Shown: positions 22,225 through 40,176 of the stretch, one piece after another
How positions within the stretch are numbered: position 1 is the first letter of the stretch
How the letters are laid out: every line of letters starts with the position of its first letter
Source: a phage
Length of the DNA: 64,000 nt
Reading direction: 5' to 3' (one strand)
Sequence record: PX880103.1
The notes under the pieces: model-generated
The model's input: only the letters and a program-made list of their open reading frames with translations
Told to the model about the DNA's origin: nothing
The model's database searches: none
Program-made: the position numbers and the translations under genes

Positions 22225-22260
22225 TTTCTATTATATACCATCCAAATCTTAAAGTAAACA
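22225..22260 (-). promoter_or_regulatory. sigma70-type early promoter for rnh
   Basis: Minus-strand GTTTAC (plus 22254-22259) and TATAAT-like -10. Confidence 0.45.
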
Positions 22261-22262
22261 AG

Positions 22263-22270
22263 TATAAATA
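22263..22270 (+). promoter_or_regulatory. late promoter TATAAATA for gene 34
   Basis: Exact TATAAATA ~35 nt upstream of the gene 34 ATG. Confidence 0.65.
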
Positions 22271-22304
22271 CTTATTATTGAAAACACAATAGGAGCCCGG
22301 GAGA

Positions 22305-25300
22305 ATGGCCGAGATTAAAAGAAAGTTCAGAGCAGAAGATGGTCTGGACGCAGGTGGTGATAAAATAATCAACGTAGCTTTAGCTGATCGTACCGTAGGA
22401 ACTGACGGTGTTAACGTTGATTACTTAATTCAAGAAAACACAGTTCAACAATATGATCCAACTCGTGGATATTTAAAAGATTTTGTAATCATTTATGATA
22501 ACCGTCTTTGGGCTGCTATAAATGATATTCCAAAACCAGCAGGAGCTTTTAATAGCGGACGCTGGAGAGCATTACGTACCGATGCTAACTGGATTACGGT
22601 TTCATCTGGTTCATATCAATTGAAATCCGGTGAAGCAATTTCGGTTAATACTGCAGCTGGAAATGACATCACGTTTACTTTACCGTCTTCTCCAATTGAT
22701 GGTGATACTATCGTTCTCCAAGATATTGGAGGAAAACCTGGAGTTAACCAAGTTTTAATTGTAGCTTCAGTGCAAAGTATTGTAAACTTTAGAGGTGAAC
22801 AAGTACGTTCAGTACTAATGACTCATCCAAAGTCACAGCTAGTTTTATTTTTTAGTAATCGTCTGTGGCAAATGTATGTTGCTGATTATAGTAGAGAAGC
22901 TATAGTTGTAACACCAGCGAATACCTATCAAGCACAATCCAACGATTTTATCGTACGTAGATTTACTTCCGCTGCACCAATTAATGTTAAACTTCCAAGA
23001 TTTGCTAATCATGGCGATATTATTAATTTCGTCGATTTAGATAAACTAAATCCGCTTTATCATACAATTGTTACTACATACGATGAAACGACTTCAGTAC
23101 AAGAAGTTGGAACTCATTCCATTGAAGGCCGTACAACAATTGACGGTTTCTTGATGTTTGATGATAATGAGAAATTGTGGAGATTGTTTGACGGGGATAG
23201 TAAAGCGCGTTTACGCATTATAACGACTAATTCTAATATTCGTCCAAATGAAGAAGTTATGGTATTTGGTGCGAATAACGGAACAGCTCAGACAATTGAA
23301 CTTCAGCTTCCAACTAATATTTCTGTTGGTGATACTGTTAAAATTTCCATGAATTACATGAGAAAAGGACAAACAGTTAAAATCAAAGCTGCCGGTGAAG
23401 ATAAAATTGCTTCTTCAGTTCAATTGCTGCAATTCCCAAAACGCTCAGAATATCCGCCTGAAGCTGAATGGGTTACAGTCCAAGAATTAGTTTTTAATGG
23501 TGAAACTAATTATGTTCCAGTTTTACAACTTGCTTATATAGAAGATTCTGACGGAAAATACTGGGTTGTACAGCAAAACGTTCCAACTGTAGAAAGAGTT
23601 GATTCTTTAAATGATTCTACCAGAGCAAGATTAGGCGTGATTGCTTTAGCTACACAAGCCCAAGCTAATGTCGATTTAGAAAATTCTCCACAAAAAGAAT
23701 TAGCAATTACTCCAGAAACGTTAGCTAATCGTACTGCTACAGAAACTCGCAGAGGTATTGCAAGAATAGCAACTACTGCTCAAGTGAATCAGAACACCAC
23801 ATTCTCTTTTGCTGATGATATTATCATCACTCCTAAAAAGCTGAATGAAAGAACTGCTACAGAAACTCGTAGAGGTGTCGCAGAAATTGCTACGCAACAG
23901 GAAACTAATGCAGGTACTGATGATACTACAATCATCACTCCTAAAAAGCTTCAAGCTCGTCAGGGTTCTGAATCATTATCTGGTATTGTAACTTTTGTAT
24001 CTACTGCAGGTGCTACTCCAGCTTCTAGCCGTGAATTAAATGGTACGAATGTTTATAATAAAAACACTAATAATTTAGTTGTTTCACCTAAAGCTTTAGA
24101 TCAGTATAAAGCTACTCCAACACAGCAAGGTGCAGTAATTTTAGCAGTTGAAAGTGAAGTAATTGCTGGACAAAGTCAGGAAGGATGGGCAAATGCTGTT
24201 GTAACGCCAGAAACGTTACATAAAAAGACATCAACTGATGGAAGAATTGGTTTAATTGAAATTGCTACGCAAAGTGAAGTTAATACAGGAACTGATTATA
24301 CTCGTGCAGTCACTCCTAAAACTTTAAATGGCCGTAAAGCAACTGAAAGTTTAAGTGGTATAGCTGAAATTGCTACGCAAGTTGAATTCGACGCAGGCGT
24401 CGACGATACTCGTATCTCTACACCATTAAAAATTAAAACTAGATTTAATAGTACTAATCGTACTTCTGTTGTTGCTCTATCTGGATTAGTTGAATCAGGA
24501 ACTCTCTGGGACCATTATACCCTCAATATTCTTGAAGCAAATGAGACACAACGTGGTACACTTCGTGTAGCCACGCAAGTTGAAGCTGCTGCAGGAACAT
24601 TAGATAATGTTTTAATAACTCCTAAAAAGCTTTTAGGTACTAAATCTACCGAATCGCAAGAAGGTGTTATTAAAGTTGCAACTCAGTCTGAAACTGTGAC
24701 TGGAACGTCAGCAAATACTGCTGTATCTCCAAAAAATTTAAAATGGATTGTGCAGAGTGAACCTACTTGGGCAGCTACTACTGCGATAAGAGGTTTTGTT
24801 AAAACTTCATCTGGTTCAATTACATTCGTTGGTAATGATACAGTCGGTTCTACCCAAGATTTAGAACTGTATGAGAAAAATAGCTATGCGGTATCACCAT
24901 ATGAATTAAACCGTGTATTATCAAATTATCTGCCGTTAAAAGCAAAGGCTGTAGATAGTAATTTATTGGATGGTTTAGATTCATCTCAGTTCATTCGTAG
25001 GGATATTGCACAGACGGTTAATGGTTCACTAACCTTAACCCAACAAACGAATCTGAGTGCCCCTCTTGTATCATCTAGTACTGCTACGTTTGGTGGTTCA
25101 GTTTCGGCAAATAGTACATTAACTATTTCTAATACTGGAACGGCAACTCGTTTGATTTTTGAGAAAGGACCTCAAACTGGAACTAACCCAGCACAGACGA
25201 TGACTATCAGAGTTTGGGGAAATCAGTTTGGCGGCGGTTCAGATACAACACGTTCTACTGTATTTGAAGTTGGTGATGAAACATCTAATCACTTTTATTC

Positions 25301-26174
25301 TCAACGTAATAAAGCTGGTAATATTACGTTTAGCATTAATGGTACTGTGATGCCAATAAATGTTAACGCTTCAGGCACGTTGAATGCGAATGGCGTTGCA
25401 ACATTCGGTCGTTCAGTTACAGCCAATGGTGAATTCATTAGCAAGTCTGCAAATGCTTTCAGAGCAATTAGTGGTGATTATGGATTCTTTATCAGGAATG
25501 ATGGCGGTAGCACATATTTTATGCTTACTGCATCTGGTGATCAGACTGGCGGATTTAATGGATTACGTCCTTTGGCTATTAATAATGCATCTGGCCAAGT
25601 AACGATTGGTGAAAGCTTAATCATTGCCAAAGGTGCTACTATAAATTCAGGCGGTTTGACTGTTAACTCGAGAATTCGTTCTCAGGGTACTAAAACATCT
25701 GATTTATATACCCGTGCGCCAACATCTGATACTGTAGGATTCTGGTCAATCGATATTAACGATTCAGCCACTTATAACCAGTTCCCGGGTTATTTTAAAA
25801 TGGTTGAAAAAACTAATGAAGTGACTGGGCTTCCATACTTAGAACGTGGCGAAGAAGTTAAATCTCCTGGTACATTGACTCAGTTTGGTAATACACTTGA
25901 TTCGCTTTACCAAGATTGGATTACTTATCCAACGACTCCAGAAGCACGTACCACTCGCTGGACACGTACATGGCAGAAAACCAAAAACTCTTGGTCAAGT
26001 TTTGTTCAGGTATTTGATGGAGGTAACCCTCCTCAACCATCTGATATCGGTGCTTTACCATCTGATAATGCTATAATGGGGAATCTTACTATTCGTGATT
26101 TCTTGCGAATTGGTAATGTTCGCATTGTTCCTGACCCAGTGAATAAATCTGTTAAATTTGAATGGGTTGAATAA
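22305..26174 (+). CDS. 34: gp34 long tail fibre proximal subunit
   Basis: 1289 aa = T4 gp34 length; first gene of the plus-strand LTF operon; internal ~40-aa repeats. Confidence 0.93.
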   Translation: MAEIKRKFRAEDGLDAGGDKIINVALADRTVGTDGVNVDYLIQENTVQQYDPTRGYLKDFVIIYDNRLWAAINDIPKPAGAFNSGRWRALRTDANWITVSSGSYQLKSGEAISVNTAAGNDITFTLPSSPIDGDTIVLQDIGGKPGVNQVLIVASVQSIVNFRGEQVRSVLMTHPKSQLVLFFSNRLWQMYVADYSREAIVVTPANTYQAQSNDFIVRRFTSAAPINVKLPRFANHGDIINFVDLDKLNPLYHTIVTTYDETTSVQEVGTHSIEGRTTIDGFLMFDDNEKLWRLFDGDSKARLRIITTNSNIRPNEEVMVFGANNGTAQTIELQLPTNISVGDTVKISMNYMRKGQTVKIKAAGEDKIASSVQLLQFPKRSEYPPEAEWVTVQELVFNGETNYVPVLQLAYIEDSDGKYWVVQQNVPTVERVDSLNDSTRARLGVIALATQAQANVDLENSPQKELAITPETLANRTATETRRGIARIATTAQVNQNTTFSFADDIIITPKKLNERTATETRRGVAEIATQQETNAGTDDTTIITPKKLQARQGSESLSGIVTFVSTAGATPASSRELNGTNVYNKNTNNLVVSPKALDQYKATPTQQGAVILAVESEVIAGQSQEGWANAVVTPETLHKKTSTDGRIGLIEIATQSEVNTGTDYTRAVTPKTLNGRKATESLSGIAEIATQVEFDAGVDDTRISTPLKIKTRFNSTNRTSVVALSGLVESGTLWDHYTLNILEANETQRGTLRVATQVEAAAGTLDNVLITPKKLLGTKSTESQEGVIKVATQSETVTGTSANTAVSPKNLKWIVQSEPTWAATTAIRGFVKTSSGSITFVGNDTVGSTQDLELYEKNSYAVSPYELNRVLSNYLPLKAKAVDSNLLDGLDSSQFIRRDIAQTVNGSLTLTQQTNLSAPLVSSSTATFGGSVSANSTLTISNTGTATRLIFEKGPQTGTNPAQTMTIRVWGNQFGGGSDTTRSTVFEVGDETSNHFYSQRNKAGNITFSINGTVMPINVNASGTLNANGVATFGRSVTANGEFISKSANAFRAISGDYGFFIRNDGGSTYFMLTASGDQTGGFNGLRPLAINNASGQVTIGESLIIAKGATINSGGLTVNSRIRSQGTKTSDLYTRAPTSDTVGFWSIDINDSATYNQFPGYFKMVEKTNEVTGLPYLERGEEVKSPGTLTQFGNTLDSLYQDWITYPTTPEARTTRWTRTWQKTKNSWSSFVQVFDGGNPPQPSDIGALPSDNAIMGNLTIRDFLRIGNVRIVPDPVNKSVKFEWVE
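23690..24740 (+). repeat. intragenic repeats in gp34 (ITPKKL/TPETL ... ATESxxG(I/V)xEIATQ units)
   Basis: At least five imperfect copies visible in the translation. Confidence 0.5.
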
Positions 26175-26182
26175 GAGGTATT

Positions 26183-27301
26183 ATGGAAAAATTTATGGCA
26201 GAGTTTGGACAAGGATATGTCCAAACGCCATTTTTATCGGAAAGTAATTCAGTAAGATATAAAATAAGTATAGCGGGTTCTTGCCCGCTTTCTACTGCAA
26301 AAGGACCATACGTTAAATTTCAGGATAATCCTGTCGGAAGTCAAACATTTAGCGCAGGACTTCATTTAAGAGTTTTTGATCCTTCCACCGGAGCATTAGT
26401 TGACAGTAAGTCATATGCTTTTTCGACTTCAAATGATACTACATCAGCTGCTTTTGTTAGTTTCATGAATTCTTTGACGAATAATAGACTTGTTGCTATA
26501 TTAACTAACGGAAAGGTTAATTTTCCTCCTGAAGTAGTATCTTGGCTAAGAGCTGCAGGAACGGCTGCTTTTCCATCTGATTCTATATTGTCAAGATTCG
26601 ACGTATCATATGCTGCTTTTTACACTTCTTCTAAAAGAGCTATTGCATTAGAGCATGTTAAACTAAGTAATAGAAAAAGCACAGATGATTATCAAACTAT
26701 TTTAGACGTTGTATTTGACAGTTTAGAAGATGTTGGAGCTACCGGGTTTCCAAGAAGAACGTATGAAAACGTTAAGCAATTTATGTCAGCTGTCGGTGGA
26801 ACTAATAACGAAATTGCACGTTTTCCAACTTCAGCTGCTATAAGCAAACTCTCTGATTATAATTTAGTTCCTGGTGATGTTCTTTATCTTAAAGCACAGT
26901 TATATGCTGATGCTGATTTACTTGCACTTGGAACTACAAATATATCCATCCGTTTTTATAATGCGTCGAATGGATATATTTCCTCGACACAAGCTGAGTT
27001 TACTGGACAAGCCGGGTCTTGGGAATTAAAAGAAGATTATGTAGTTGTTCCAGAAAACGCGGTGGGATTTACGATATACGCACAAAGAACTGCACAAGCT
27101 GGTCAAGGCGGAATGAGGAATTTAAGTTTTTCTGAAGTGTCAAGAAATGGTAGTATTTCGAAACCCGCTGAATTTGGCGTCAACGGTATTCGAGTTAATT
27201 ATGTCTGTGAATCCGCTTCACCTCCGGATATAATGGTACTTCCTACACAAGCATCGTCTAAAACTGGTAAAGTGTTTGGGCAAGAATTTAGAGAAGTATA
27301 A
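26183..27301 (+). CDS. 35: gp35 long tail fibre hinge connector
   Basis: 372 aa = T4 gp35 length; position. Confidence 0.9.
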   Translation: MEKFMAEFGQGYVQTPFLSESNSVRYKISIAGSCPLSTAKGPYVKFQDNPVGSQTFSAGLHLRVFDPSTGALVDSKSYAFSTSNDTTSAAFVSFMNSLTNNRLVAILTNGKVNFPPEVVSWLRAAGTAAFPSDSILSRFDVSYAAFYTSSKRAIALEHVKLSNRKSTDDYQTILDVVFDSLEDVGATGFPRRTYENVKQFMSAVGGTNNEIARFPTSAAISKLSDYNLVPGDVLYLKAQLYADADLLALGTTNISIRFYNASNGYISSTQAEFTGQAGSWELKEDYVVVPENAVGFTIYAQRTAQAGQGGMRNLSFSEVSRNGSISKPAEFGVNGIRVNYVCESASPPDIMVLPTQASSKTGKVFGQEFREV

Positions 27302-27306
27302 ATTGA

Positions 27307-27333
27307 GGGAGCCTTCGGGTTCCCTTTTTCTTT
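27307..27333 (+). terminator. rho-independent terminator after gene 35
   Basis: Hairpin gggagccttcgggttccc followed by TTTTTCTTT. Confidence 0.6.
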
Positions 27334-27340
27334 ATAAATA
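27333..27340 (+). promoter_or_regulatory. late promoter TATAAATA for gene 36
   Basis: Exact TATAAATA ~24 nt upstream of the gene 36 ATG. Confidence 0.6.
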
Positions 27341-27363
27341 CTATTAAAATAAAGGGGCATACA

Positions 27364-28029
27364 ATGGCTGATTTAAAAGTAGGTTCAACAACTGGAGGCT
27401 CTGTCATTTGGCATCAAGGAAATTTTCCATTGAATCCGGCCGGTGACGATGTACTCTATAAATCATATAAAATATATTCAGAATATAATAAACCGCAAGC
27501 AGCTGATAACGATTTCGTTTCTAAAGCTAATGGCGGTACTTATGCATCAAAAGTAACATTTAACGGCGGCGTCCAAGTCCCGTATGCTGCAAACATCATG
27601 AGCCCATGTGGTATTTATGGAGGTAACGGTGATGCAGCTACTTTTGATACAGCAAATATTGATATTGTTTCGTGGTATGGTATAGGATTTAAATCATCGT
27701 ACGGTTCAGTAGGCCGAACTGTTGTAATTAATACACGTAATGGTGATATTAATACAAAAGGTGTTGTGTCGGCAGTTGGCCAAGTAAGAAGTAATGCAGC
27801 TGCTCCTGTAGCAGTGAATGACCTTACTAGAAAGGACTACGTTGATGGAGCAATAAATACTGTTACAGCAAATGCAAACTCCAGGGTGCTACGGTCAGGT
27901 GATACCATGACAGGTAACTTAACAGCGCCAAACTTTTTCTCACAGAATCCTGCGTCTCAACCTTCACATGTTCCACGATTTGACCAAATCGTAATTAAGG
28001 ATTCTGTTCAAGATTTCGGCTATTATTAA
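27364..28029 (+). CDS. 36: gp36 long tail fibre distal connector
   Basis: 221 aa = T4 gp36 length; position. Confidence 0.9.
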   Translation: MADLKVGSTTGGSVIWHQGNFPLNPAGDDVLYKSYKIYSEYNKPQAADNDFVSKANGGTYASKVTFNGGVQVPYAANIMSPCGIYGGNGDAATFDTANIDIVSWYGIGFKSSYGSVGRTVVINTRNGDINTKGVVSAVGQVRSNAAAPVAVNDLTRKDYVDGAINTVTANANSRVLRSGDTMTGNLTAPNFFSQNPASQPSHVPRFDQIVIKDSVQDFGYY

Positions 28030-28037
28030 GAGGACTT

Positions 28038-31000
28038 ATGGCTACTTTAAAACAAATACAATTTAAAAGAAGCAAAACAGCAGGTGCACGTCCTGCTGCT
28101 TCAGTATTAGCCGAAGGTGAATTGGCTATAAACTTAAAAGATAGAACACTTTTTACTAAAAATGATACAGGTCAAATTATCGACCTTGGCTTCGCTAAAG
28201 GTGGACAAGTCGATGGTGATGTGACTATTAATGGTAAATTAACATTAAATGGTGCGTATGTTCAGACGCTGGCTGGTATTAATACCACGGGTGGTATTAA
28301 TGCTGGAGCCGCTATAAGTGCAACAACTTATTATGCTCGGTCTGGTTCTTATTATGCTCGTGCTCCAGATGCCGATACGAATACACATGTTTGGTTTGAA
28401 AATAGCAATGGTATAGAACGTGGCGTGATTTGGGCTATTCCGAACACTTCAGACCTTGGCCAGGTCAAAATTCGGGCGAAAACCACAGGTGGTGTTTTCG
28501 CCGGCGAGTACAGTTTCCGCTCTGATGGCCGATTTGATGTTCCTGTAGCAGTTAAAATCGGCGGAGCAGCGATGCTAACCAAAGACGGCAACATTACATC
28601 AGGTTCATTGTTTGGTGGTAACCTTAACAACTATTTGACTTCTATTAAAAATGACATTGTTGCTGGTGATAATAAGAAAGTAAGTAAAACCGGTGACACT
28701 ATGTCCGGTAACTTGACTATTAACGCTAACTTAAAAGTCGAAAACTCTAATGGAACGTATGTTGATTTAGGTTCAGAGAACTCTAGTAACTATAGCAGAT
28801 TAACTCTTGCTCGTAAAGTTGGAGATGGCGCTGGTGTAGCAATGCTTAAAGTTACTCCTGAAGGAAACGTGCAATTTGGTTATCAACCTACAGTTGCTAC
28901 TCCATCTCCTACCAAGTATATTCTAATTAAACCTAACGGTCTTGAAGTAGAAGGTGATTTAGTTTTTAAGCAAACTTATCGTGGTATTGAAGAAGCATTT
29001 GATATTACTGATCAGACTATTGACCTTAATAGCCTTATTATTAGAGGATCAGATTTAGGTACTCGTAAGCTGTATAAATGCAGATCATCTGGCGGTGGTT
29101 CTAATATATTGAACAAACCTACATCTGACGGCAACTTTACTCTTGAAGTTCTGTCTTTACGCAAGGTTTCTGATAGCGATTGGTCATGTAAGCAGACCTT
29201 TACTACAAAGAACAATAATGTTGTAGGCGTATATGTTCGCTACGGACAAGGCGGCTCATGGACCGCATGGCAAGAAGTTGTATCTGGTGTTCAGCCAATT
29301 AAATTAGGTGGTACTGGAGCAACTTCTGTAGCTGCTGCCCGTAATAACCTTGGTGTTGGTGAAGGCCAAACTGTAACATTCGGTAATTTAGTTACCAATG
29401 ATTTAACTGCAAACAAACAAGTTAAAATCGGCGGAGTCGGAATAGCTGATGCATTAAGAATTTGGAATGCCGAATACGGTGCTATTTTCCGTCGTTCAGA
29501 AACAGCATTACATATTATCCCGACTCCTAAAGATGCTGGTGAAAATGGTGGAATAAGTAATCTCCGCCCATTAAGTATTGCTCTTAATAATGGTATGGTA
29601 CAAATGCGCCATTCTGTTACGTTAGGCGATGACGGCAGAGGTGGCAATATGATTACCGTAGACAATGATAATAAACTTGTTGCTGTTACTAGTCATAGCC
29701 GCATTTCTCCTAATTACCGTATGCAGTTAGGTCAGGCTGCGTACATTGATGCAGAATGTACTGATGCTGTTCGCCCGGCTGGAGCTGGTTCTTTTGCTTC
29801 ACAGAATAATGAAAACGTCCGTGCTCCGTTCTATATGAATATTGATAGAGCTGATACTGGTACATATGTTCCGATTTTGAAACAACGTTATGTTCAAGGT
29901 AACGGCTGCTATTCATTAGGGACTTTAATTAATAATGGTAATTTCCGAGTTCATTACCATGGAGGCGGAGATAACGGTTCTACAGGTCCACAGACTGCTG
30001 ATTTTGGATGGGAATTTATTAAAAACGGTGATTTTATTTCACCTCGCGATTTAATAGCAGGTAAAGTCAGATTTGATAGAACTGGTAATATTACTGGAGG
30101 TTCAGGAAACTTTGCCAATTTAAATACCACGTTAAACCGTAAAGTTAATGTTGGCGGTTGGGCTGGTAGTTCTGATGGTGGATGGTACAAATTTGCTACG
30201 GTAACAATTCCTCAAGGTACTGGCACAGTAACTTTTAAAATTTCCGGTGGAGCTGGTTTTAATTTTAAAAGCTATAACCAAGCTTCTATTGCTGAGATAG
30301 TTCTTCGCACAGGTAATAATCCTAAAGGCATAAACGCTGTACTATGGAACAGGTCAGACCTGAGTTTTAATCAGATAGCTACTATGAATACATCTGGTGA
30401 TACTTATGATGTATACGTGTTCTGTGACGGTTATACAAATGCATTAGTGGTTGAATATTCTTGTAGTGAAAACTCTTCGGTAACCGTAGTCGGTCTTAAC
30501 GGAGGCATTCAGCCAGTTGTTGATGCATTGCCTGAGGGACATGTTGTAGGTAAAACAGTTCGTCTGTTAAATAATATTGGCGGAACTTTCGCAGCTGGCG
30601 AATCTGACGTTGTTACTCGTGGTGAATACGTTGCTGATAATCAAAAAGGCATGCGTATTAAATCTAACGGTAATAATATCGGTTCTAATGCTGCTATACT
30701 TCGAAATGACGGCGGAAGTTTTTATATTTTAGCTACAGATAAAAATACAGCAGAAAAAGCCGATGCGGCTAATGGTGATTGGAACTCATTGCGTCCTTTT
30801 ACAATAAGCATGACTACCGGTGAAGTATCAATGAATAACGGCATAACTGTTCGTAACTATGCCACATTCTATAATGATATTGTTCTCAAAGATAATGGTT
30901 ATATTCACTTTAATAAGTCTGGCGCTAATCCAAGAAGCATGAGTATATTCCATGCCGGAGATGCCACACGTGGTAACCGTATTGAAATTGCTGATGATTC

Positions 31001-31580
31001 AAGTTATTTGGTTTATTTCCAACGTTTACCGGGCGGCGCTAACCAGTGTACATTTAACTCTGCTGCTCTTTCGGGTATAACACAGACTAACTCTTTTGGT
31101 GTCAATACATCAAACGCACTTGGTGGAAATAGTATAACGTTTGGTGATAATGACACCGGTATTAAGCAAAATGGCGATGGATTATTAGACATATATGCGA
31201 ACAGCGCGCAAGTGTTCCGTTTCCAAAATGGTGATTTGTACTCATACAAAAATATAAATGCTCCAAACGTTTATATTCGTTCTGATATTCGTTTAAAATC
31301 CAACTTCAAACCTATCGAAAATGCACTTGATAAAGTTGAAAAACTTAACGGTGTCATTTACGATAAAGCTGAATACATCGGTGGAGAGGCAATTGAAACT
31401 GAAGCGGGTATTGTGGCTCAAACGTTACAAGACGTTTTACCAGAAGCTGTCCGTGAAACAGAAGACAGCAAGGGTAATAAAATACTCACTGTTTCTTCTC
31501 AAGCCCAGATTGCTCTTCTGGTTGAAGCTGTGAAAACACTTTCTTCTCGCGTAAAAGAACTCGAATCTAAACTTATGTAA
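28038..31580 (+). CDS. 37: gp37 long tail fibre distal subunit with C-terminal intramolecular-chaperone-like domain
   Basis: 1180 aa; conserved N-terminus MATLKQIQFKRSKTAGARP; C-terminal ~110 aa (SDIRLKSNF...coiled coil) resembles auto-processing chaperone domains of T2/S16-type fibres. Confidence 0.92.
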   Translation: MATLKQIQFKRSKTAGARPAASVLAEGELAINLKDRTLFTKNDTGQIIDLGFAKGGQVDGDVTINGKLTLNGAYVQTLAGINTTGGINAGAAISATTYYARSGSYYARAPDADTNTHVWFENSNGIERGVIWAIPNTSDLGQVKIRAKTTGGVFAGEYSFRSDGRFDVPVAVKIGGAAMLTKDGNITSGSLFGGNLNNYLTSIKNDIVAGDNKKVSKTGDTMSGNLTINANLKVENSNGTYVDLGSENSSNYSRLTLARKVGDGAGVAMLKVTPEGNVQFGYQPTVATPSPTKYILIKPNGLEVEGDLVFKQTYRGIEEAFDITDQTIDLNSLIIRGSDLGTRKLYKCRSSGGGSNILNKPTSDGNFTLEVLSLRKVSDSDWSCKQTFTTKNNNVVGVYVRYGQGGSWTAWQEVVSGVQPIKLGGTGATSVAAARNNLGVGEGQTVTFGNLVTNDLTANKQVKIGGVGIADALRIWNAEYGAIFRRSETALHIIPTPKDAGENGGISNLRPLSIALNNGMVQMRHSVTLGDDGRGGNMITVDNDNKLVAVTSHSRISPNYRMQLGQAAYIDAECTDAVRPAGAGSFASQNNENVRAPFYMNIDRADTGTYVPILKQRYVQGNGCYSLGTLINNGNFRVHYHGGGDNGSTGPQTADFGWEFIKNGDFISPRDLIAGKVRFDRTGNITGGSGNFANLNTTLNRKVNVGGWAGSSDGGWYKFATVTIPQGTGTVTFKISGGAGFNFKSYNQASIAEIVLRTGNNPKGINAVLWNRSDLSFNQIATMNTSGDTYDVYVFCDGYTNALVVEYSCSENSSVTVVGLNGGIQPVVDALPEGHVVGKTVRLLNNIGGTFAAGESDVVTRGEYVADNQKGMRIKSNGNNIGSNAAILRNDGGSFYILATDKNTAEKADAANGDWNSLRPFTISMTTGEVSMNNGITVRNYATFYNDIVLKDNGYIHFNKSGANPRSMSIFHAGDATRGNRIEIADDSSYLVYFQRLPGGANQCTFNSAALSGITQTNSFGVNTSNALGGNSITFGDNDTGIKQNGDGLLDIYANSAQVFRFQNGDLYSYKNINAPNVYIRSDIRLKSNFKPIENALDKVEKLNGVIYDKAEYIGGEAIETEAGIVAQTLQDVLPEAVRETEDSKGNKILTVSSQAQIALLVEAVKTLSSRVKELESKLM

Positions 31581-31581
31581 A

Positions 31582-31605
31582 AGAGGGCTTCGGCCCTCTA
31601 AGGAT
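31582..31605 (+). terminator. hairpin (agagggcttcggccctct) after gene 37; weak terminator or RNA stability element
   Basis: GC-rich stem with TTCG loop followed by a T-poor tail. Confidence 0.4.
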
Positions 31606-31610
31606 TTTTA

Positions 31611-32390
31611 ATGGCAATTGTAGGTGTTCCTGGCTGGATTGGTGAATCTGCCGTGAATGAAACTGGACAACGTTGGATGGATGCTGCGATGAGAGCAGTT
31701 CGTGTTTCAGTTCCTGGTTGGATGAGCTCAATGGCTGGACAATCTAAAGAAATTATTCACACGCTTGGAGCAGACCATAACTTCAATGGTCAATGGTTCC
31801 GAGATAGGTGTTTTGAGGCAGGTAGTACACCTATAGTGTTTAATATTACAGGTGATTTAGTATCATATTCTAAAGATGTTCCTTTATTTTTCATGTATGG
31901 AGATACACCGAATGAATATGTTCAGTTGAATATACACGGCGTAACGATGTATGGACGTGGCGGTAATGGCGGTAGCAATAGTCCTGGCTCAGCTGGAGGT
32001 CATTGTATTCAAAACGATATTGGTGGGAGACTAAGAATTAATAATGGTGGAGCTATTGCAGGCGGCGGTGGCGGCGGTGGCGGCGGTAACAGGGGTAGAC
32101 TATCATTTGGTGGTGGCGGTGGTCGCCCATTCGGTGCTGGCGGGTCTTCCTCTCATATGAGTTCCGGTGCAACTGCTGGCACCATTTCCGCTCCGGGTAA
32201 AGGATCTGTTGGTGAGGGGTCTCTTAGTGCATATACAGGCGGTGCTGGCGGTAACGTTGGTGCTGCTGGAGGAAGATGTAATACTCAAGGTACCGGTACA
32301 GAATATAACGGAGGAGCTGCTGGTTATGCCGTCATAGGGTCCGCTCCAACGTGGATAAATGTTGGAGCAATATATGGTCCAAGAGTATAA
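31611..32390 (+). CDS. 38: gp38 receptor-binding adhesin (T2/S16 type, glycine-rich motifs)
   Basis: 259 aa; conserved N-terminus then poly-Gly blocks ([23 protein letters not shown]) separated by variable segments. Confidence 0.85.
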
Positions 32391-32420
32391 TTTGAATAAA
32401 TATCCTTAAAAGGAGGGTCT

Positions 32421-33077
32421 ATGGCAGCACCTAGAATATCATTTTCGCCCTCTGATATTCTGTTTGGTGTTCTAGATCGCTTGTTCAAAGATAACGCTAC
32501 CGGGAAAGTTCTTGCTTCCCGGGTAGCTGTCGTAATTCTTTTGTTTATAATGGCGATTGTTTGGTATAGGGGAGATAGTTTCTTTGAGTACTATAAGCAA
32601 TCAAAGTATGAAACATACAGTGAAATTATTGAAAAGGAAAGAACTGCACGCTTTGAATCTGTCGCCCTGGAACAACTCCAGATAGTTCATATATCATCTG
32701 AGGCAGACTTTAGTGCGGTGTATTCTTTCCGCCCTAAAAACTTAAACTATTTTGTTGATATTATAGCATACGAAGGAAAATTACCTTCAACAATAAGTGA
32801 AAAATCACTTGGAGGATATCCTGTTGATAAAACTATGGATGAATATACAGTTCATTTAAATGGACGTCATTATTATTCCAACTCAAAATTTGCTTTTTTA
32901 CCAACTAAAAAGCCTACTCCCGAAATAAACTACATGTACAGTTGTCCATATTTTAATTTGGATAATATCTATGCTGGAACGATAACCATGTACTGGTATA
33001 GAAATGATCATATAAGTAATGACCGCCTTGAATCAATATGTGCTCAGGCGGCCAGAATATTAGGAAGGGCTAAATAA
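32421..33077 (+). CDS. t: holin T
   Basis: 218 aa = T4 T length; single N-proximal TM segment and large periplasmic domain; position after gene 38. Confidence 0.9.
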   Translation: MAAPRISFSPSDILFGVLDRLFKDNATGKVLASRVAVVILLFIMAIVWYRGDSFFEYYKQSKYETYSEIIEKERTARFESVALEQLQIVHISSEADFSAVYSFRPKNLNYFVDIIAYEGKLPSTISEKSLGGYPVDKTMDEYTVHLNGRHYYSNSKFAFLPTKKPTPEINYMYSCPYFNLDNIYAGTITMYWYRNDHISNDRLESICAQAARILGRAK

Positions 33078-33350
33078 TTATTTGTTCGTATACATCTCTA
33101 GATATCGATATACACCCTCAAAACCCTCGTTGAATTCGTCGATGAGGGTTTTCTTATCTTCTTGGGTTAATTCAGAAACAATTTTACGGAATGAATTCTG
33201 ATTCAACTTTCTACCTTCATGCATTACTCCAATCTCATTTAGAAATGCAATAAAATTAGCACGATTCTCAACAATATCTTCTCTGGAAAATTTAATCAAA
33301 ATAGACGCAACAGTAATAATTTCACGAACTGTATCAATGTTTTTATTCAT
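33078..33350 (-). CDS. asiA: AsiA anti-sigma70 factor
   Basis: 90 aa; MNKNIDTVREIITVASILIKFSREDIVENRANFIAFLNEIGV matches T4 AsiA nearly residue-for-residue as recalled. Confidence 0.95.
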   Translation of the reverse strand: MNKNIDTVREIITVASILIKFSREDIVENRANFIAFLNEIGVMHEGRKLNQNSFRKIVSELTQEDKKTLIDEFNEGFEGVYRYLEMYTNK

Positions 33351-33362
33351 TAACTATACCAC

Positions 33363-33515
33363 TCAATTAGCTGACTTTGTTATAATATCATCAGACGCTT
33401 GATTTGTAAACTGGTCTGTGTTATTTTCTTCAAAAATTTTTTCTACGAATTCCTTGAACGATTCACGTTCCTGAGCTACATTATGCTCGATTACTTTTTC
33501 AAGATTATGACTCAT
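33363..33515 (-). CDS. small ORF (~50 aa) translationally coupled to arn
   Basis: Hand-translated MSHNLEKVIEHNVAQERESFKEF...; ATGA overlap with the arn stop; below track size cut-off. Confidence 0.35.
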   Translation of the reverse strand: MSHNLEKVIEHNVAQERESFKEFVEKIFEENNTDQFTNQASDDIITKSAN

Positions 33516-33790
33516 TCGAAATAATCTTCAATTTCATAATCAAGGACATAAATCATTATAGTTTTTAATACATCATCAATACTTTTTCCTGGAGCTGGAA
33601 TTACGTAAAAATATCCTGCTTTTGAGAGGTCTTTATAAGTTCCAATCAAGAAATCATTATTCTCAAGATGTAGTTCTTCAACTAATTCATTGACAATTGA
33701 ATGGTATAAATTTGGTAGAAACTTATATAGCTTTTCTAGAATATCAATTTTGATTGTGTATTGAACCACGGACTGAGAATCAATAATCAT
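33512..33790 (-). CDS. arn: Arn anti-restriction nuclease (McrBC inhibitor)
   Basis: 92 aa; MIIDSQSVVQYTIKIDILEKLYKFLPNLYHSIVNELVEELHLENNDF matches T4 Arn as recalled. Confidence 0.9.
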   Translation of the reverse strand: MIIDSQSVVQYTIKIDILEKLYKFLPNLYHSIVNELVEELHLENNDFLIGTYKDLSKAGYFYVIPAPGKSIDDVLKTIMIYVLDYEIEDYFE

Positions 33791-33873
33791 AGACCTTCCC
33801 CTTATGTTTCTGTTTGCGATTAGATTCTTTAAACGCTTTCTTCTTATCCTTATGAACAGAAGCTTTATTAAAA

Positions 33874-34092
33874 TTATGTTTTGCGACTAAATTGTTCATA
33901 GTGCTGAATTACCTCTCTTAAACATTTGCATGTGAATGAAAACTTTTTAGCTACACCACATTCAAATATATGTTCTCTTAAATCACGTGTATCGGTATAT
34001 CCCATCTCAACAATAAAATGCCGTATTAGATTTTTATCTTTATCATTGAGAGAATTAAAATAATCAGATTTTGAATTAATTTCCCTGGCCAA
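33874..34092 (-). CDS. hypothetical protein
   Basis: 72-aa ORF with CxxC-like cysteines. Confidence 0.5.
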   Translation of the reverse strand: MAREINSKSDYFNSLNDKDKNLIRHFIVEMGYTDTRDLREHIFECGVAKKFSFTCKCLREVIQHYEQFSRKT

Positions 34093-34372
34093 ATTGAATC
34101 ACCTTCAGTTGACGTTTTAATTCTTTTATCATTTCTTCGTTCATCGCAATATAAAGATCGCGTAAAGCAGGTTTTAGCATTCCATTTACTGGAGAACTAA
34201 ATGGGCACACATAATCTTTTCCTACGAGCTTTTTAGTGAATTCCATATTACAGAACTGAAATGCCGGTTCATTGGCATAAATTCCCCATTTGGTTGACAT
34301 CATTTTATTAGCATATTCCAGCGCCTGGATTTGATTCATAATTCCATCAATTTGAAACTGTTTAATATTCAT
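34076..34372 (-). CDS. hypothetical protein
   Basis: 98-aa ORF. Confidence 0.5.
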   Translation of the reverse strand: MNIKQFQIDGIMNQIQALEYANKMMSTKWGIYANEPAFQFCNMEFTKKLVGKDYVCPFSSPVNGMLKPALRDLYIAMNEEMIKELKRQLKVIQFGQGN

Positions 34373-34833
34373 TAGTAAAGGTCCTCAGAGTAAAGTTCTT
34401 TTTCACTACCACCACGTTCAATACGTACTTGTCCAGCGTAAGTTGCAATAATCATTGCTTCTTCACGTGTCCAATAATTACTATATTGGTCAATAAACCC
34501 TTGGTCATCATCACAAACTTGCTGAGTAACTAATTGAGATTTAACTACATCTAAAACTTCTGCCATATCTTTAGAATAATGACGAGCACCTGGAATAATA
34601 AGAGTTCGTCCATCTTTTAATTTAAAACGGTTGGCTGCACAGACAATTCGTCGTTGATACTTTTGGTTTTCATCCCAGTACGCAGTCTGCCAACAAATTT
34701 CAGGAACTTCATCTAAAACATTTTGTTCTGTATATTCACCACCGTGAGAAGCTAATTTAGCAGCCAGACTTTCCGGAGTCTCACGCGACAAAGCTTTATC
34801 TAACAGAGCTAAACGTTCTTTAAAAGTTTTCAT
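34372..34833 (-). CDS. hypothetical protein
   Basis: 153-aa ORF. Confidence 0.55.
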
Positions 34834-35159
34834 TTAAACCATCCTTTAATACGTTGCCACAAAGTTTTCTGTTGAGCTTTGTTAACACCAATTGAGCGAA
34901 TAACTGGTTGAGATTCCTGGAATTCTTTATAATCAGCAAGGTAAATTTCGTAAGCTGCATCCGTAAAGGAACTTATCGCTGCCATAAAATTATTGCGAAT
35001 ACCTACTGGAGCATCTTTACTTTCACGAATAATCATGTATTTACCAGTCTTAATCTTTACAATAGTTCCAAGATAAGCTCCATGGTACCAAATATCCCAA
35101 CCCTCTTGAGTAGGTTCTGCGCAACGACGAAGTTCATTAACAATTTCTAACTTGTTCAT
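34830..35159 (-). CDS. hypothetical protein
   Basis: 109-aa ORF. Confidence 0.55.
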
Positions 35160-35169
35160 TATTTATTCC

Positions 35170-35805
35170 TCACAGTTCAGATGCTACAGTGATTACAGCT
35201 TCAATGTTTTCTGCCGAGCGTTTAATATCAAGATACACATTACCGTTTTTAGCGATTTTACATGACATTCCGATATCAGTAAATTTCTGAATATGATGTT
35301 CCATCATTTTGTATCCAAAAATTCGCATATTTCCATTATTGTTAATTTCAAAATTACGAATTCCGTGAGTGCGTTTTTCTAAAATAGCAAGATAGTTACT
35401 GCGATAAGTTTCAACCTTTTTAAGAACAAATCCATTTTCATCTAAAAGTTTTAACATGAGGTCTTTATCTTCTTCCATATCGGAAGTAATCTCACGAGCT
35501 TTACGAGTTGCTCGTTTTTTCAGCAGTTCCGGAGCATTTTCCTGTGCATATAAAGTTGCTGCATTTGAAATAATATCTTGAGCTTCACCAGTAATGATTA
35601 ATCCATCACCAGATTTCTCCACTAGGCCTTTTTTAATCAATACCCCAATATTACTATTAACTACCGCGTTACCTAAATCTGGATGCACCTCACGAACTTC
35701 TGCGGCTGTAATGAAATCTTTCTTAGCAATGGTAATTAAAATCGCAGCAGTTTTTTCATTCAGAACATCGTTAGAAGCTTTGATGATGTAAGTTACTTTA
35801 GACAT
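35170..35805 (-). CDS. motA: MotA middle-transcription activator
   Basis: 211 aa = T4 MotA length; MSKVTYIIKASNDVLNEKTAAILITIAKKDFITAAEVREVHPDLG matches T4 MotA as recalled. Confidence 0.92.
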   Translation of the reverse strand: MSKVTYIIKASNDVLNEKTAAILITIAKKDFITAAEVREVHPDLGNAVVNSNIGVLIKKGLVEKSGDGLIITGEAQDIISNAATLYAQENAPELLKKRATRKAREITSDMEEDKDLMLKLLDENGFVLKKVETYRSNYLAILEKRTHGIRNFEINNNGNMRIFGYKMMEHHIQKFTDIGMSCKIAKNGNVYLDIKRSAENIEAVITVASEL

Positions 35806-35837
35806 TTTCTAATCTCCGTAATTCTGTATCAGTAGTT

Positions 35838-35876
35838 GATAGTTGTATAGTACCACAGTATGCTTTGGTTGTAAAC
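35838..35876 (-). promoter_or_regulatory. sigma70-type early promoter for motA
   Basis: Minus-strand GTTTAC (plus 35871-35876) and TAnnnT -10. Confidence 0.5.
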
Positions 35877-35894
35877 CGTTTTGTGAAAAAAAAA

Positions 35895-35930
35895 ATTTTA
35901 AAATAAAAAAGGGAGAGCCTCGGCTCTCCC
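35895..35930 (-). terminator. rho-independent terminator
   Basis: Hairpin gggagagccgaggctctccc followed by TTTTTTATTTT on the minus strand. Confidence 0.55.
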
Positions 35931-35935
35931 TAAAA

Positions 35936-36085
35936 TTACTGCATGACTGTGATAACTGTCATGATAACACGTTGAATTCCAAACGCAAGAAGACCTCCTG
36001 CTACGGCTGGAACAACACCTAACCCTGCCAGTAAAATGCTACCAGATACTAATGCAGCGCTTGTAATACCAATGAATGGACTCAT
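35936..36085 (-). CDS. small hydrophobic membrane peptide (49 aa)
   Basis: Hand-translated MSPFIGITSAALVSGSILLAGLGVVPAVAGGLLAFGIQRVIMTVITVMQ; ATGA overlap with gene 52 stop. Confidence 0.4.
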   Translation of the reverse strand: MSPFIGITSAALVSGSILLAGLGVVPAVAGGLLAFGIQRVIMTVITVMQ

Positions 36086-37410
36086 TTGATTTCCTCTAAA
36101 TCTTTGGTGTATTCAGTAACTACATCAGTAGTTTTCCAATATTCGTTTTCTTCTTTTTTAGCTTTAGCTTCTTCAGCAAGTTTCTTTGCTTCATCGGAAG
36201 TCATATGAAAAATATTCATTCCAACTAGTTTATCAACATAAGAAGAATACATATCGATTTTCGAAAGTTCTTCGGTCAGTTCTTTACGAGTTTTACCCTG
36301 TACAACAATTTCACCTGAAATTACTTTCTTAATGAAATGTGCCTTGGCAAAGGCTAAACGAAAAGCTGACTCAGTTTCTTTAATTTTGTTATCAATTCGT
36401 TTTTGGACATAAGTTTTACGAACTTCAACAAAGTCTTTAATTAAATCAACTACGTTATCGTAAACTTGTAGTTTTCCTTTCTCATTAATAACCGTAATAT
36501 TCTGAGAACGACGCTCAATCAACCCGAAGTCTTTCATAATTTTTGCATGGCGTTCTTCTTCGTTATCGCTCAAAGAGTATTCTTTGCGGAATTTAACTTT
36601 GAAGCCAAAACCATGCTCACCACAAGCATCATCCCATGTAATGAAGCCTTTATCTTCAAGTGGGTCTAAGATTTTACTCACATAAGTTTCACGATCATAC
36701 TTGTACGGAATCTCAGTGATATGCATTTGAGTTCGTGAAGTAAACTTATATGTTCCACGAATTTCATATTGCCCATCAATTTCAACGACTTCACCGCGAA
36801 ATTCTGGGAATTCTACCTTCGGTTTAGTTACTTTCTTTCCTTGAAGAGCTTGCAGTACAGCTTTCTTGACAGAAGAAACACTATGAGGAAGAATGTAAGT
36901 TGCATAACCAGTTGCAATACCGGAAACGCCATTAAGAAGAACAGTAGGAATAATAGGCAAATAGAAAGCAGGCGGAATGTGTTCTTTATCTTGATGTACC
37001 GGAGCATATTCAGTATCTTTATATACGTTATAGAAATTTTTACTTACACGAGCAAAAATATAACGACTTGCTGCTGCTTTTTGAACGGTACGAGAACCAA
37101 AGTTTCCTTGACCATCTAACAGAGGAAAGTTATTATTCCAGGTGTTAGCCATCAAAGCGCCCGCATCTTGTGCAGAGTTTTCGCCATGGTGATATCCAAG
37201 GTCCGCTACACCACCTGCGATAGAAGCGAGTTTGTGAAACTTATCTTTATTTCCTCGCGCCAAATCAAGAGCTCGAGCAATAACAAATCGTTGAACTGGC
37301 TTAAATCCATCAATCATATTTGGAATAGCACGATTTTCAACCGTGTACATAGCATAAGCCAATGCTTCATTATCAATGATACTTTTTAAATCGCGATTAT
37401 TCAGTTGCAT
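36082..37410 (-). CDS. 52: gp52 DNA topoisomerase II medium subunit (GyrA-like)
   Basis: 442 aa = T4 gp52 length; topoisomerase breakage-reunion-type motifs; adjacent to motA. Confidence 0.93.
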   Translation of the reverse strand: MQLNNRDLKSIIDNEALAYAMYTVENRAIPNMIDGFKPVQRFVIARALDLARGNKDKFHKLASIAGGVADLGYHHGENSAQDAGALMANTWNNNFPLLDGQGNFGSRTVQKAAASRYIFARVSKNFYNVYKDTEYAPVHQDKEHIPPAFYLPIIPTVLLNGVSGIATGYATYILPHSVSSVKKAVLQALQGKKVTKPKVEFPEFRGEVVEIDGQYEIRGTYKFTSRTQMHITEIPYKYDRETYVSKILDPLEDKGFITWDDACGEHGFGFKVKFRKEYSLSDNEEERHAKIMKDFGLIERRSQNITVINEKGKLQVYDNVVDLIKDFVEVRKTYVQKRIDNKIKETESAFRLAFAKAHFIKKVISGEIVVQGKTRKELTEELSKIDMYSSYVDKLVGMNIFHMTSDEAKKLAEEAKAKKEENEYWKTTDVVTEYTKDLEEIK

Positions 37411-37414
37411 AAAT

Positions 37415-37555
37415 TTACCATACTAGTGAATGTAGTGCCATAATAACATCAGAAATGAAAAGCACGACTTGAATTAATCCGAACATTACTCCATAATATA
37501 GTGCTACCAATAAAGTAGCAAGGGCTAATGAATAGCCCAAGATTTTCTTAATCAT
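37415..37555 (-). CDS. small hydrophobic membrane peptide (46 aa)
   Basis: Hand-translated MIKKILGYSLALATLLVALYYGVMFGLIQVVLFISDVIMALHSLVW. Confidence 0.4.
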   Translation of the reverse strand: MIKKILGYSLALATLLVALYYGVMFGLIQVVLFISDVIMALHSLVW

Positions 37556-37706
37556 TAGTGGATAACAACACAAATGTTAAATATGCACACATACCCTGGG
37601 CTAAAGCTTGTGAAAACACACTGCTAGCATCGATACAGATAGTTAAAACACATGCTACTATCCAACAAATAAATGAAATAACTCCTAATAATTTTGCGAT
37701 ATTCAT
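37548..37706 (-). CDS. ac: small membrane protein (52 aa), candidate Ac (acridine sensitivity) equivalent
   Basis: Hand-translated MNIAKLLGVISFICWIVACVLTICIDASSVFSQALAQGMCAYLTFVLLSTND; size and position between 52 and stp fit T4 ac (from memory). Confidence 0.4.
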   Translation of the reverse strand: MNIAKLLGVISFICWIVACVLTICIDASSVFSQALAQGMCAYLTFVLLSTND

Positions 37707-37713
37707 ATTTTCC

Positions 37714-37794
37714 TCACTGACGTCCGAATACGCCTTTGGTTTTAAGATTGTTACGATAGAACTGCATCACATGTTCGTTATGGAAATTACTCAT
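37714..37794 (-). CDS. stp: Stp peptide (activator of host PrrC anticodon nuclease)
   Basis: 26-codon [29 protein letters not shown], identical to the T4 Stp peptide as I recall it; TAATG overlap with the ndd stop. Confidence 0.8.
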
Positions 37795-38249
37795 TAATAT
37801 GCCTGTAAAACAAATTTAAAGTTATCAGCCAACATACGATTCATTTCTTCAAGTGTTTGATACTCAGAATGATGATTACGAGTAAACGCCAAAGCTAACT
37901 GACCTTTTCCAAATCCCGTCGTTAGAGGTTTCATCTTAGAAGCAGGCAAATAAAACACTGTGTATGGAACATTGTTATTTGCAATAGTACGCGCAAGTTG
38001 AGACCGGCGTTGACGAATATGACTTAAAACCGCACTGAATCCTTGCTTAGAACGCTGATTACCTACATAAAATCGTGCAGATACGCATGGATTACTAAAT
38101 GGACCACCGAGTTTACTCACTAAAAAGTAAAATCCAGGTTTAGACAAAATGTCTTTGTGCGGAGTTCCCAAAAACCACTCACCACCCTTGATTGTACCAA
38201 TAACAGTAGCGCCTGCATTATTCAGATCAATAACAGTCATATATTTCAT
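37794..38249 (-). CDS. ndd: Ndd nucleoid disruption protein
   Basis: 151 aa from [26 protein letters not shown] (internal ATG; track start is further upstream); matches T4 Ndd as recalled. Confidence 0.88.
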
Positions 38250-38309
38250 ATTAATTTCCTCTAAATTATTTTCTACTCCAAGGCCGCATGAATACACACG
38301 GCCATTAAA

Positions 38310-38525
38310 TTAATCGTCGCAGTCGACGCTCAATTCCCAAAACTCTTCTACAGTATAAGTTTCAGTATCATTTTCAATACAGAAACGTTCATTACTATTG
38401 TTTGCTAAAGTAGCATTAACTGTCATTTTCTCGCTAGTGCTCTTAAGAGGTGAAATACGAATTAACTGATCACCGTTATCTAAACAGAAAATTTCACCAA
38501 CTTTTACATCTTTAAAGATTTTCAT
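38310..38525 (-). CDS. hypothetical protein (ndd.1 position)
   Basis: 71-aa ORF. Confidence 0.5.
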   Translation of the reverse strand: MKIFKDVKVGEIFCLDNGDQLIRISPLKSTSEKMTVNATLANNSNERFCIENDTETYTVEEFWELSVDCDD

Positions 38526-38640
38526 AATTCACCTCAAGGAGTATAAAATCCAAATGCAGTTGTTGACCATCCCATCCAATACGGAAAATTTGCACCGATG
38601 TAAAACACGAGAATATAAAACCAAATACCCAGTAAATTCA

Positions 38641-38838
38641 TCATTTTACACCATTCCAAATTGTTTCAACTACTGATTTTAAACCATTTTGATGAATATC
38701 CATTCCGACTACTGCCATCAAATAGATTCCAACTACAACTGAACCTAGCGCAAAAATCAGCATGAAAATGAATAAAGCCGGAAAAATATTATCGAAAAAC
38801 CATTCCATAAATGTAAAAGCACTGCGTTTACGCTTCAT
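38641..38838 (-). CDS. small membrane protein
   Basis: Track ORF begins with TTG; internal ATG MKRKRSAFTFMEWFF... preferred; hydrophobic core. Confidence 0.45.
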   Translation of the reverse strand: MKRKRSAFTFMEWFFDNIFPALFIFMLIFALGSVVVGIYLMAVVGMDIHQNGLKSVVETIWNGVK

Positions 38839-38845
38839 ATTTTCC

Positions 38846-38959
38846 TCACATAAATCCAAAGTAAACGTTTAACACATCAATCATTAAAACGATTGGGAAT
38901 ATACTCAAAACTATTAGTATTATAACTACATTCCATATAGCTTTAATAATCTTTTTCAT
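38846..38959 (-). CDS. small membrane peptide (37 aa)
   Basis: MKKIIKAIWNVVIILIVLSIFPIVLMIDVLNVYFGFM downstream of an early promoter at ~38965-39010. Confidence 0.4.
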   Translation of the reverse strand: MKKIIKAIWNVVIILIVLSIFPIVLMIDVLNVYFGFM

Positions 38960-38964
38960 TTTCT

Positions 38965-39010
38965 GTTCCTCCGTAGTTGATAGGGTAATAGTACCACGGA
39001 AGAACAGTCT
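38965..39010 (-). promoter_or_regulatory. sigma70-type early promoter
   Basis: Minus-strand GTTTAC and TAnnnT elements (plus: gtagttgatagggtaatagtaccac ... tgtaaacaac). Confidence 0.45.
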
Positions 39011-39308
39011 TGTAAACAACTTTTTTAAAAATATTCGTAATAAATGTGAATACCAACTACTACCGCTGAAACCTGTGCAACCCACCACGCACAAGCAATA
39101 AGTACAGAATTCATAATTTTCATAATAACCTCATTACAAAAGTAAATATTAAACAAATTACTGGAATACTAATTAACCAAACAAAACACCACCACAATGA
39201 ACTCATAGCTCAATCTCAGCGATTTTCATTTCATTCTCCAAATCCGTATCAGTTGATAGTTGTATAGTACCACGGTCCTTGTGGTATGTAAACTGTTTTG
39301 TGAATTTT

Positions 39309-39866
39309 TTAAATGAAAAGATACCATCCATTGTAGTTGCTTTTTCTTACAACCTTACGAAGGTCTTCTCTGTCACCGATGAACTTCGGAGTGTACTGGA
39401 TGACACCTGGATGAATTTCTTTAGTGTTGAATATAATTATACAGTCAGCGACTTGATGATTTAGAATGGGCCCTAGATTTATTCCAGAACCGTATGGATA
39501 CTCTCCGCTGCATCCTGTTGTTACAGAAATCCAACGTGAGTCAGTTTGGTGTGTCTTAACTTCTACACGAAGCCCGCAGTATTTTGGATGTGCTAAAACA
39601 TCCCATGCATATGTGTACGGATCATCGACATCTTCTTGGCCTTTATTGACATACCCGCTTAGCCAATCTGCTACAAAAAATTCTGCGTACACAGCGATAC
39701 GGCATCTTTCGATAACTTCTGCCTTATCCTGATTTGGGTTTTGTTTTAAAGAGTATCTTGCAGTATCAGCAATTTTGGCCTTCATTTCACTAGTCAAGTC
39801 ACTGTTCGATAGGGTAAATGACGGAATCTGAAATAGTCTCTGCAAACCCGGATTCGTTTTCTGCAT
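39309..39866 (-). CDS. denB: endonuclease IV
   Basis: 185 aa = T4 DenB length; position between ndd cluster and rIIB. Confidence 0.85.
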   Translation of the reverse strand: MQKTNPGLQRLFQIPSFTLSNSDLTSEMKAKIADTARYSLKQNPNQDKAEVIERCRIAVYAEFFVADWLSGYVNKGQEDVDDPYTYAWDVLAHPKYCGLRVEVKTHQTDSRWISVTTGCSGEYPYGSGINLGPILNHQVADCIIIFNTKEIHPGVIQYTPKFIGDREDLRKVVRKSNYNGWYLFI

Positions 39867-39953
39867 TTAAACTTTCCTTTTATGTCGGAATCACTGGTAT
39901 TCATATAATAAATCATAATTTCTCTTAAAACAAAAGGGCCGAAGCCCTTTATT

Positions 39954-40148
39954 TTACTTGAATTGTGCAATTCTTTTCTCTAGACATTCAGCATAAGATT
40001 TCATTGAGATAAACTGCGAAAGCAGCAGTTCTTGCTCAACTGCACTAACTGTTAGAAACTTTGCGCTTTCTAAAAATTTACTCAGTGCATTAATTTTGAG
40101 CATTAATTGATCGTATTCTTCTTTTACTCGTGCTTGATAACCTAACAT
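39954..40148 (-). CDS. hypothetical helical protein flanked by near-identical hairpins
   Basis: 64-aa ORF; hairpins aagggccgaagccctt at ~39934-39951 and ~40161-40176. Confidence 0.5.
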   Translation of the reverse strand: MLGYQARVKEEYDQLMLKINALSKFLESAKFLTVSAVEQELLLSQFISMKSYAECLEKRIAQFK

Positions 40149-40176
40149 AATTTTCCTTAGTTAAGGGCCGAAGCCC

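Follow-up and report, generated by a model that had tools for sequence, protein, structure and literature searches.

A Peptidase_S74 intramolecular chaperone domain at the C-terminus of gp37, the distal long-tail-fibre subunit of a T2-type phage, with predicted autocleavage followed by predicted gp38 capping

The gp37 protein of phage T4 depends on separate chaperones (the T4 gp37 / gp38 / gp57A system). For T2 and T6, gp37 is reported to be proteolysed at its C-terminus before gp38 caps it (PMC3157838, relaying Drexler, Riede & Henning 1986, J Mol Biol 191:267), and a 'lock and key' relation has been described, in which gp37 C-terminal subtypes pair with gp38 N-terminal subtypes (PMC3157838). 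For Salmonella phage S16, the findings of Dunne et al. (2018), as relayed in PMC7917993, are that an intramolecular chaperone (IMC) at the C-terminus is autocleaved after trimerisation, between the serines of DLNVS^SDRRIKK, baring the surface on which gp38 docks; a cleavage at DVYIR^SDGRLKI is predicted for the Yersinia fPS phages (PMC7917993). In pb1 of T5, it is the Thr1263-Ser1264 bond that is cut: Lys1269 activates Ser1264, which departs with the chaperone (PMC4690869). The IMCs of T5 pb1 and of the K1F endosialidase both terminate in a triple-helical coiled coil (PMC4690869).

The DNA analysed here (the window, a single stretch of 64,000 nucleotides) comes from a T2-type Tequatrovirus, a T-even-type myovirus, and its first 25 kb share 96% DNA identity with many Escherichia phages. 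Its long-tail-fibre cluster comprises gp34 (22305..26174), gp35 (26183..27301), gp36 (27364..28029), gene 37, encoding the precursor of the distal subunit (28038..31580, + strand, 1180 aa, 125.9 kDa), gene 38, encoding a receptor-binding adhesin of the T2/S16 type (31611..32390, + strand, 259 aa), and the holin gene t (32421..33077). This order, 34-35-36-37-38-t, matches that of both T2 and T4. The gp37 product belongs to the PHROG family 'long tail fiber protein distal subunit' (E 2.9e-184). Within the phage collection, the gp37-gp38 pair most similar to this one is that of Escherichia phage FL12, with 92.9% nucleotide identity along the entire 4.35 kb, the two gp37 proteins being 91.8% identical in amino acid sequence. 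Scans of the whole 64-kb window (1..64000) with Rfam, at the gathering threshold, and for tRNAs yielded no family and no tRNA gene.

We conclude that gp37 ends in a standard Peptidase_S74 / IMC domain. Its C-terminus reads ...NVYIR SDIRLKSNFKPIENALDKVEKLNGVIYDK...SRVKELESKLM, and Pfam assigns residues 1082-1139 to Peptidase_S74 (PF13884, 'Chaperone of endosialidase') with an E value of 3.4e-15 and a score of 56.5 bits, the curated gathering cut-off of this family being 22 bits. The match spans the full model, positions 1-58 of 58, and its first residue is S1082; for the last 109 aa taken by themselves, the E value is 9.3e-17. The complete chaperone corresponds to aa 1082-1180 (31281..31577, + strand), that is 99 aa and 10.8 kDa, and is predicted to be released after trimerisation. 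It occupies the extreme C-terminus of the distal long-tail-fibre subunit and ends at the stop codon. The best match to a PDB sequence was the gp37 tip of Salmonella phage S16 (6f45_A, E 1.8e-12), followed by the MyRF ICA (7dc3, E 1e-3).

The domain opens on the catalytic motif S1082-D-I-R-L-K1087 (31281..31298, + strand), in which the Ser is the nucleophile and the Lys, five residues downstream, the base. In an alignment of 15 sequences from database homologues, the Lys is invariant, while the Ser and the Asp are found in at least 90%, and the sole sequence without them (P0004) begins after that position. Aligned with the S16 sequence, S1082 and K1087 fall on the Ser and the Lys of SDRRIK; in the MyRF ICA crystal construct 7dc3, their counterparts are the Ser-to-Ala position and the Lys of (Ser-to-Ala)DLRAK. 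The spacing between Ser and Lys is the same as that between Ser1264 and Lys1269 of T5 pb1.

An AlphaFold2 model of the domain, computed as a monomer from the 15-homologue alignment, has a pLDDT of 82-93 over most of its length, with lower values in one loop and in the first residues, and values below 50 for the 30 residues that precede it. The chain is folded as a helix, a beta-hairpin, a second helix, a second beta-hairpin and a long C-terminal helix. When the model was compared to the PDB with Foldseek, the only significant matches were S74/IMC structures: the MyRF ICA (7dc3, E 1.8e-6, TM 0.63-0.67), the IMC of the K1F endosialidase (3gw6, E 5e-4) and that of phage GA-1 (3gud, E 1e-2), the next match being at E 0.26. 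T5 pb1 with its IMC was not among these PDB matches, and 6f45 gave no IMC fold match either, as expected if S16 autocleavage had removed the domain before crystallisation; we did not hold this absence against the family assignment. The terminal helix, of 26 residues, is amphipathic and covers model residues 103-128, i.e. about aa 1154-1179 (31497..31574, + strand), with a pLDDT of 85-93. It displays a pattern of 3-4 heptads, in which I1158, L1161, V1165, L1168, V1172, L1175 and L1179 occupy seven consecutive a/d positions, all aliphatic. By analogy with the T5 and K1F chaperones, a trimeric coiled coil of the three terminal helices is predicted at the centre of the chaperone.

The first-pass annotation of this DNA had likened the end of gp37 to auto-cleaving chaperone domains, and placed it in the last ~110 residues, starting at 31250 and ending in a coiled coil. 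The resemblance is borne out at the level of the family (PF13884, well above its cut-off), of the Ser/Lys dyad and of the modelled fold (7dc3, 3gw6, 3gud), and the coiled coil finds support in the confident terminal helix of the monomer model, with its seven a/d positions. The sequence quoted there is indeed that of the end of gp37, and the steps it foresaw, with proteolytic removal after trimerisation and gp38 on the new tip, are those described for S16 (PMC7917993) and for T2/T6 (PMC3157838). The domain is thus present, but its limits had to be moved: it measures 99 aa, counted from S1082 at nt 31281, and position 31250 misses the reading frame by one base, codon 1072 beginning at 31251.

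With the 99-aa domain as a query, tblastn detected relatives in 1465 of the 50,697 phage records; in 1458 of these, 80% or more of the query is covered. They include T6, Ox2, the L-shaped fibre genes of T5-like phages, and T4-like phages of Aeromonas, Vibrio and Synechococcus; at least one of the related records carries the annotation 'chaperone of endosialidase'. All 99 residues are identical in FL12 and in Shigella phage ESh26, and more than 30 PHROG tail-fibre families terminate in an S74 domain. The resemblance to S74 proteins might still be thought a matter of chance or composition, of the kind that any helix-rich C-terminus could produce. Weak PDB matches to haemagglutinin HA2 (E 0.03-0.7) do show that coiled-coil-like sequence draws spurious matches. 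These HA2 matches, which received no support from the fold search, were rejected as chance; they span query residues 12-65, which correspond to gp37 1043-1096 and lie for the most part in the fibre tip, upstream of the chaperone. For the S74 match itself, the probability of such an origin is practically nil, as it is refuted by the Pfam E value over the full model, by the independent agreement of the fold with three solved structures of S74 domains, by the conservation of the catalytic motif, and by the number of phage records in which at least 80% of the domain is covered.

The cut in gp37 is predicted to fall between R1081 and S1082 (codons CGT TCT, 31278..31283, + strand), because NVYIR^SDIRLKS is of the fPS-phage DVYIR^SDGRLKI type; homology to S16 and T5 pb1 and the start of the Pfam model point to the same bond. 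The NVYIR segment of gp37 corresponds to DVYIR in the fPS phages and to DLNVS in S16, in each case just before the cleavage site, meaning that the residue preceding the cut is a Ser in S16 and an Arg here. On this placement, the distal tip of the mature protein would be formed by aa 1032-1081 (...GDNDTGIKQNGDG...NVYIR; 31131..31280, + strand), a segment that aligns to the S16 tip 6f45_A, and with the chaperone gone, the residues at its end are predicted to present the face for gp38 docking. In K1F and T5, an upstream Arg/Asp 'folding sensor' of the neighbouring subunit builds the oxyanion hole. Candidate sensor residues upstream of the cut in gp37 are R1061, D1066, K1071 and R1081, in a part of the tip that was modelled, as a monomer, with a pLDDT below 50.

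Taken with what is known of the family, these data make it very probable that gp37 is an S74-chaperoned precursor, which trimerises, autocleaves and is then capped by gp38 on its new tip. Nothing in the data speaks against this reading. The domain family, the motif, the fold, the near-identity to T2 and the pairing with a T2-type gp38 are shown by the analysis itself; the cleavage, its precise site and the sequence of steps we infer by homology. The protein would be made as a precursor of 1180 aa, of which S1082 to M1180 constitute the Peptidase_S74 intramolecular chaperone. As in other members of the family, the terminal helices of three C-terminal domains would come together in a coiled coil, and the chaperone trimer would nucleate the folding of the trimeric, beta-structured fibre tip, and set its register, from the C-terminal end. 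Correct folding of the tip would then let K1087 activate S1082 in each of the three chains, with a cut at the R1081-S1082 bond as the result. The trimer of 10.8-kDa chaperones would then dissociate, leaving a mature gp37 of 1081 aa and about 115 kDa, and the N-terminal domain of gp38 would dock on the bared NVYIR face, as S16 and T2 suggest.

Among the known systems close to this C-terminus is that of T2, whose gp37 (1341 aa) gives the same Pfam S74 match, at residues 1243-1300, and has its domain at residues 1243-1341. The two IMCs are identical at 98 of 99 amino acids, the sole difference being S1170A, and at 292 of 297 nucleotides; over the last 167 residues of our gp37 (aa 1014-1180), identity is 95%. 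The two phages share the 99-aa domain, the SDIRLK motif, the tip sequence that precedes it, and, as detailed below, the attachment domain of gp38. The shaft, in contrast, is a mosaic compared to T2, with 41% identity over aa 1-188, 73.5% over aa 416-938, and unaligned segments between, and the total length differs as well (1180 aa here, 1341 aa in T2). Only the tip and IMC cassette is T2-like, and the shaft, 41-73% identical to that of T2 or unaligned, is FL12-like.

Since S74 domains can in principle degenerate, the domain could remain uncleaved in this phage, as a permanent trimerisation knob on the mature fibre, with gp38 bound elsewhere or not at all. We regard this as very improbable: the Ser/Lys dyad is intact, the domain is at 98 of 99 positions that of T2, which is reported to be processed, and the docking face of S16 gp38 is precisely the surface bared by removal of the IMC, while the gp38 attachment domain found here is almost that of T2. 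The reading of gp37 as a cleaved precursor is the one we retain.

In T2-type long tail fibres, such an S74 domain on gp37 is already textbook knowledge. The T2-type tip, IMC and gp38-attachment cassette may perhaps be transferred as a single unit of recombination to gp37 shafts that are unrelated, and the compact 99-aa IMC, which largely lacks the long tentacle hairpins of K1F and T5, may represent the chaperone in a minimal form, and could mark the lower size limit of a functional S74 unit; we put this forward as a tentative proposal, and consider it rather doubtful. If true, cassette transfer and a minimal IMC would extend the known mosaicism and the known variation of the family, and bring no new biology.

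The partner encoded directly downstream of gp37 is a gp38 in two parts, an attachment domain at the N-terminus and a specificity domain rich in polyglycine. It matches Pfam families GP38 (PF05268, E 3.9e-71) and Gp38_N (PF21721, E 2.5e-18), and among PDB sequences 9v85 (E 8e-77) and the gp38 of S16 (6f45_D, E 1e-51). Residues 1-48 are identical to those of T2 gp38 at 47 of 48 positions, including the conserved W9, W22 and W37. Over its whole length the protein is 60% identical to T2 gp38 and 96% to FL12 gp38, and its specificity domain has diverged from that of T2. Residues 39-160 are close to the gp38 of PDB 9v85, but the loops between the glycine-rich motifs differ. The receptor is likely not that of T2, because the specificity domain is so strongly diverged. 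The 'lock and key' pairing fits the situation at this locus, as the tip and IMC (95%) and the first 48 residues of gp38 go together with T2, and the rest of both proteins has diverged.

Gene 38 occupies the position at which T4 encodes a chaperone of the same name, and one could suppose on this ground that gp38 is here a non-virion assembly chaperone in the T4 manner, and that gp37 itself binds the receptor. This supposition is extremely improbable in view of the adhesin families found in gp38 and of its match to the S16 adhesin 6f45_D. According to the T4 record, T4 gp38 is an assembly factor, and the 'gp38' of the T2 subfamily is an adhesin unrelated to it. The T4 gp37 C-terminus is also of another kind: in Pfam it contains no S74 domain, and Collar and Phage_fiber motifs are found instead. 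We therefore keep to gp38 as the adhesin that would cap the cleaved gp37. What our phage has in common with T4 is the gene order and the role of gp37 as the distal half-fibre. The length of gp37, 1180 aa against 1026 aa for T4, had also been pointed out in the first-pass annotation. Both figures are right, but they give no evidence for an added IMC; the comparison is uninformative because T4 gp37 carries no S74 domain, and the right comparator for length is the 1341-aa gp37 of T2.

Compared to the S16 gp37-gp38 complex (PDB 6f45), our gp37 has a homologous tip and IMC, with an SD+R+K motif that reads SDIRLK here and SDRRIK in S16, and a homologous gp38. For S16, an IMC of 113 residues is reported, against 99 here, and its tip has insertions. 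Similarity extends to the IMCs of the K1F endosialidase, of T5 pb1 and of GA-1 gp12, which belong to the same Pfam family, have the same Ser...Lys(+5) dyad, adopt a mixed alpha/beta fold with a long end helix, and are located at the C-terminus of a trimeric fibre or spike. Unlike those of K1F and T5, however, the domain of gp37 is short (the T5 IMC counts 134 aa), and the long beta-hairpin 'tentacles' of the T5 IMC are largely missing from it (Foldseek TM 0.48-0.50 relative to the query). The K1F, T5 pb1 and GA-1 proteins differ in another respect, as they bind their receptor directly after cleavage instead of being capped by a separate adhesin. The best structural match, the MyRF ICA (7dc3), is a eukaryotic S74 homologue with 26-28% identity and aligned catalytic positions; unlike the domain of gp37, it occupies a central position in a membrane-bound transcription factor, and what its cleavage frees is a transcription factor and not a fibre.

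For annotation, this means that the mature fibre should be described as gp37 residues 1-1081 plus the tip protein gp38, and not as the 1180-aa reading frame. For recombinant expression, be it of receptor-binding reagents or for host-range swaps, the IMC should be retained for folding and its later loss expected. Host range is expected to map to the variable loops of gp38. The analysis raises no new question, as the processing of T2 was reported in 1986 and the mechanism explained by the S16 structure in 2018.

Three minor observations concern gene 37 and its surroundings. Two bases past its stop codon, a GC-rich hairpin whose 7-bp stem encloses a TTCG loop (AGAGGGC-TTCG-GCCCTCT; window 31582..31599, + strand) has a predicted energy of -13.4 kcal/mol and a z score of -1.7. 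It is followed by AAGGATTTTT, and then by the start codon of gp38 at 31611. In the T2 record X04442, the equivalent is labelled as a potential transcription terminator; the one found here could modulate the gp37:gp38 ratio, or stabilise an mRNA 3' end.

Wholly within the IMC coding region, an alternative frame contains an ATG open reading frame of 70 aa (31321..31533, + strand). Its translation is Lys/Leu-rich and of low complexity, which suggests that it is a mechanical ORF.

Further upstream, in the shaft, aa 854-923 of gp37 (window 30597..30806) match the Pfam family Gp34_trimer (PF21446, E 4.2e-9), over profile positions 59-116 of the C-terminal trimerisation domain of gp34. The same match is present in the gp37 of T2 and FL12, and falls below threshold in that of T4. 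This segment is a fibre module common to the proximal and distal half-fibres.
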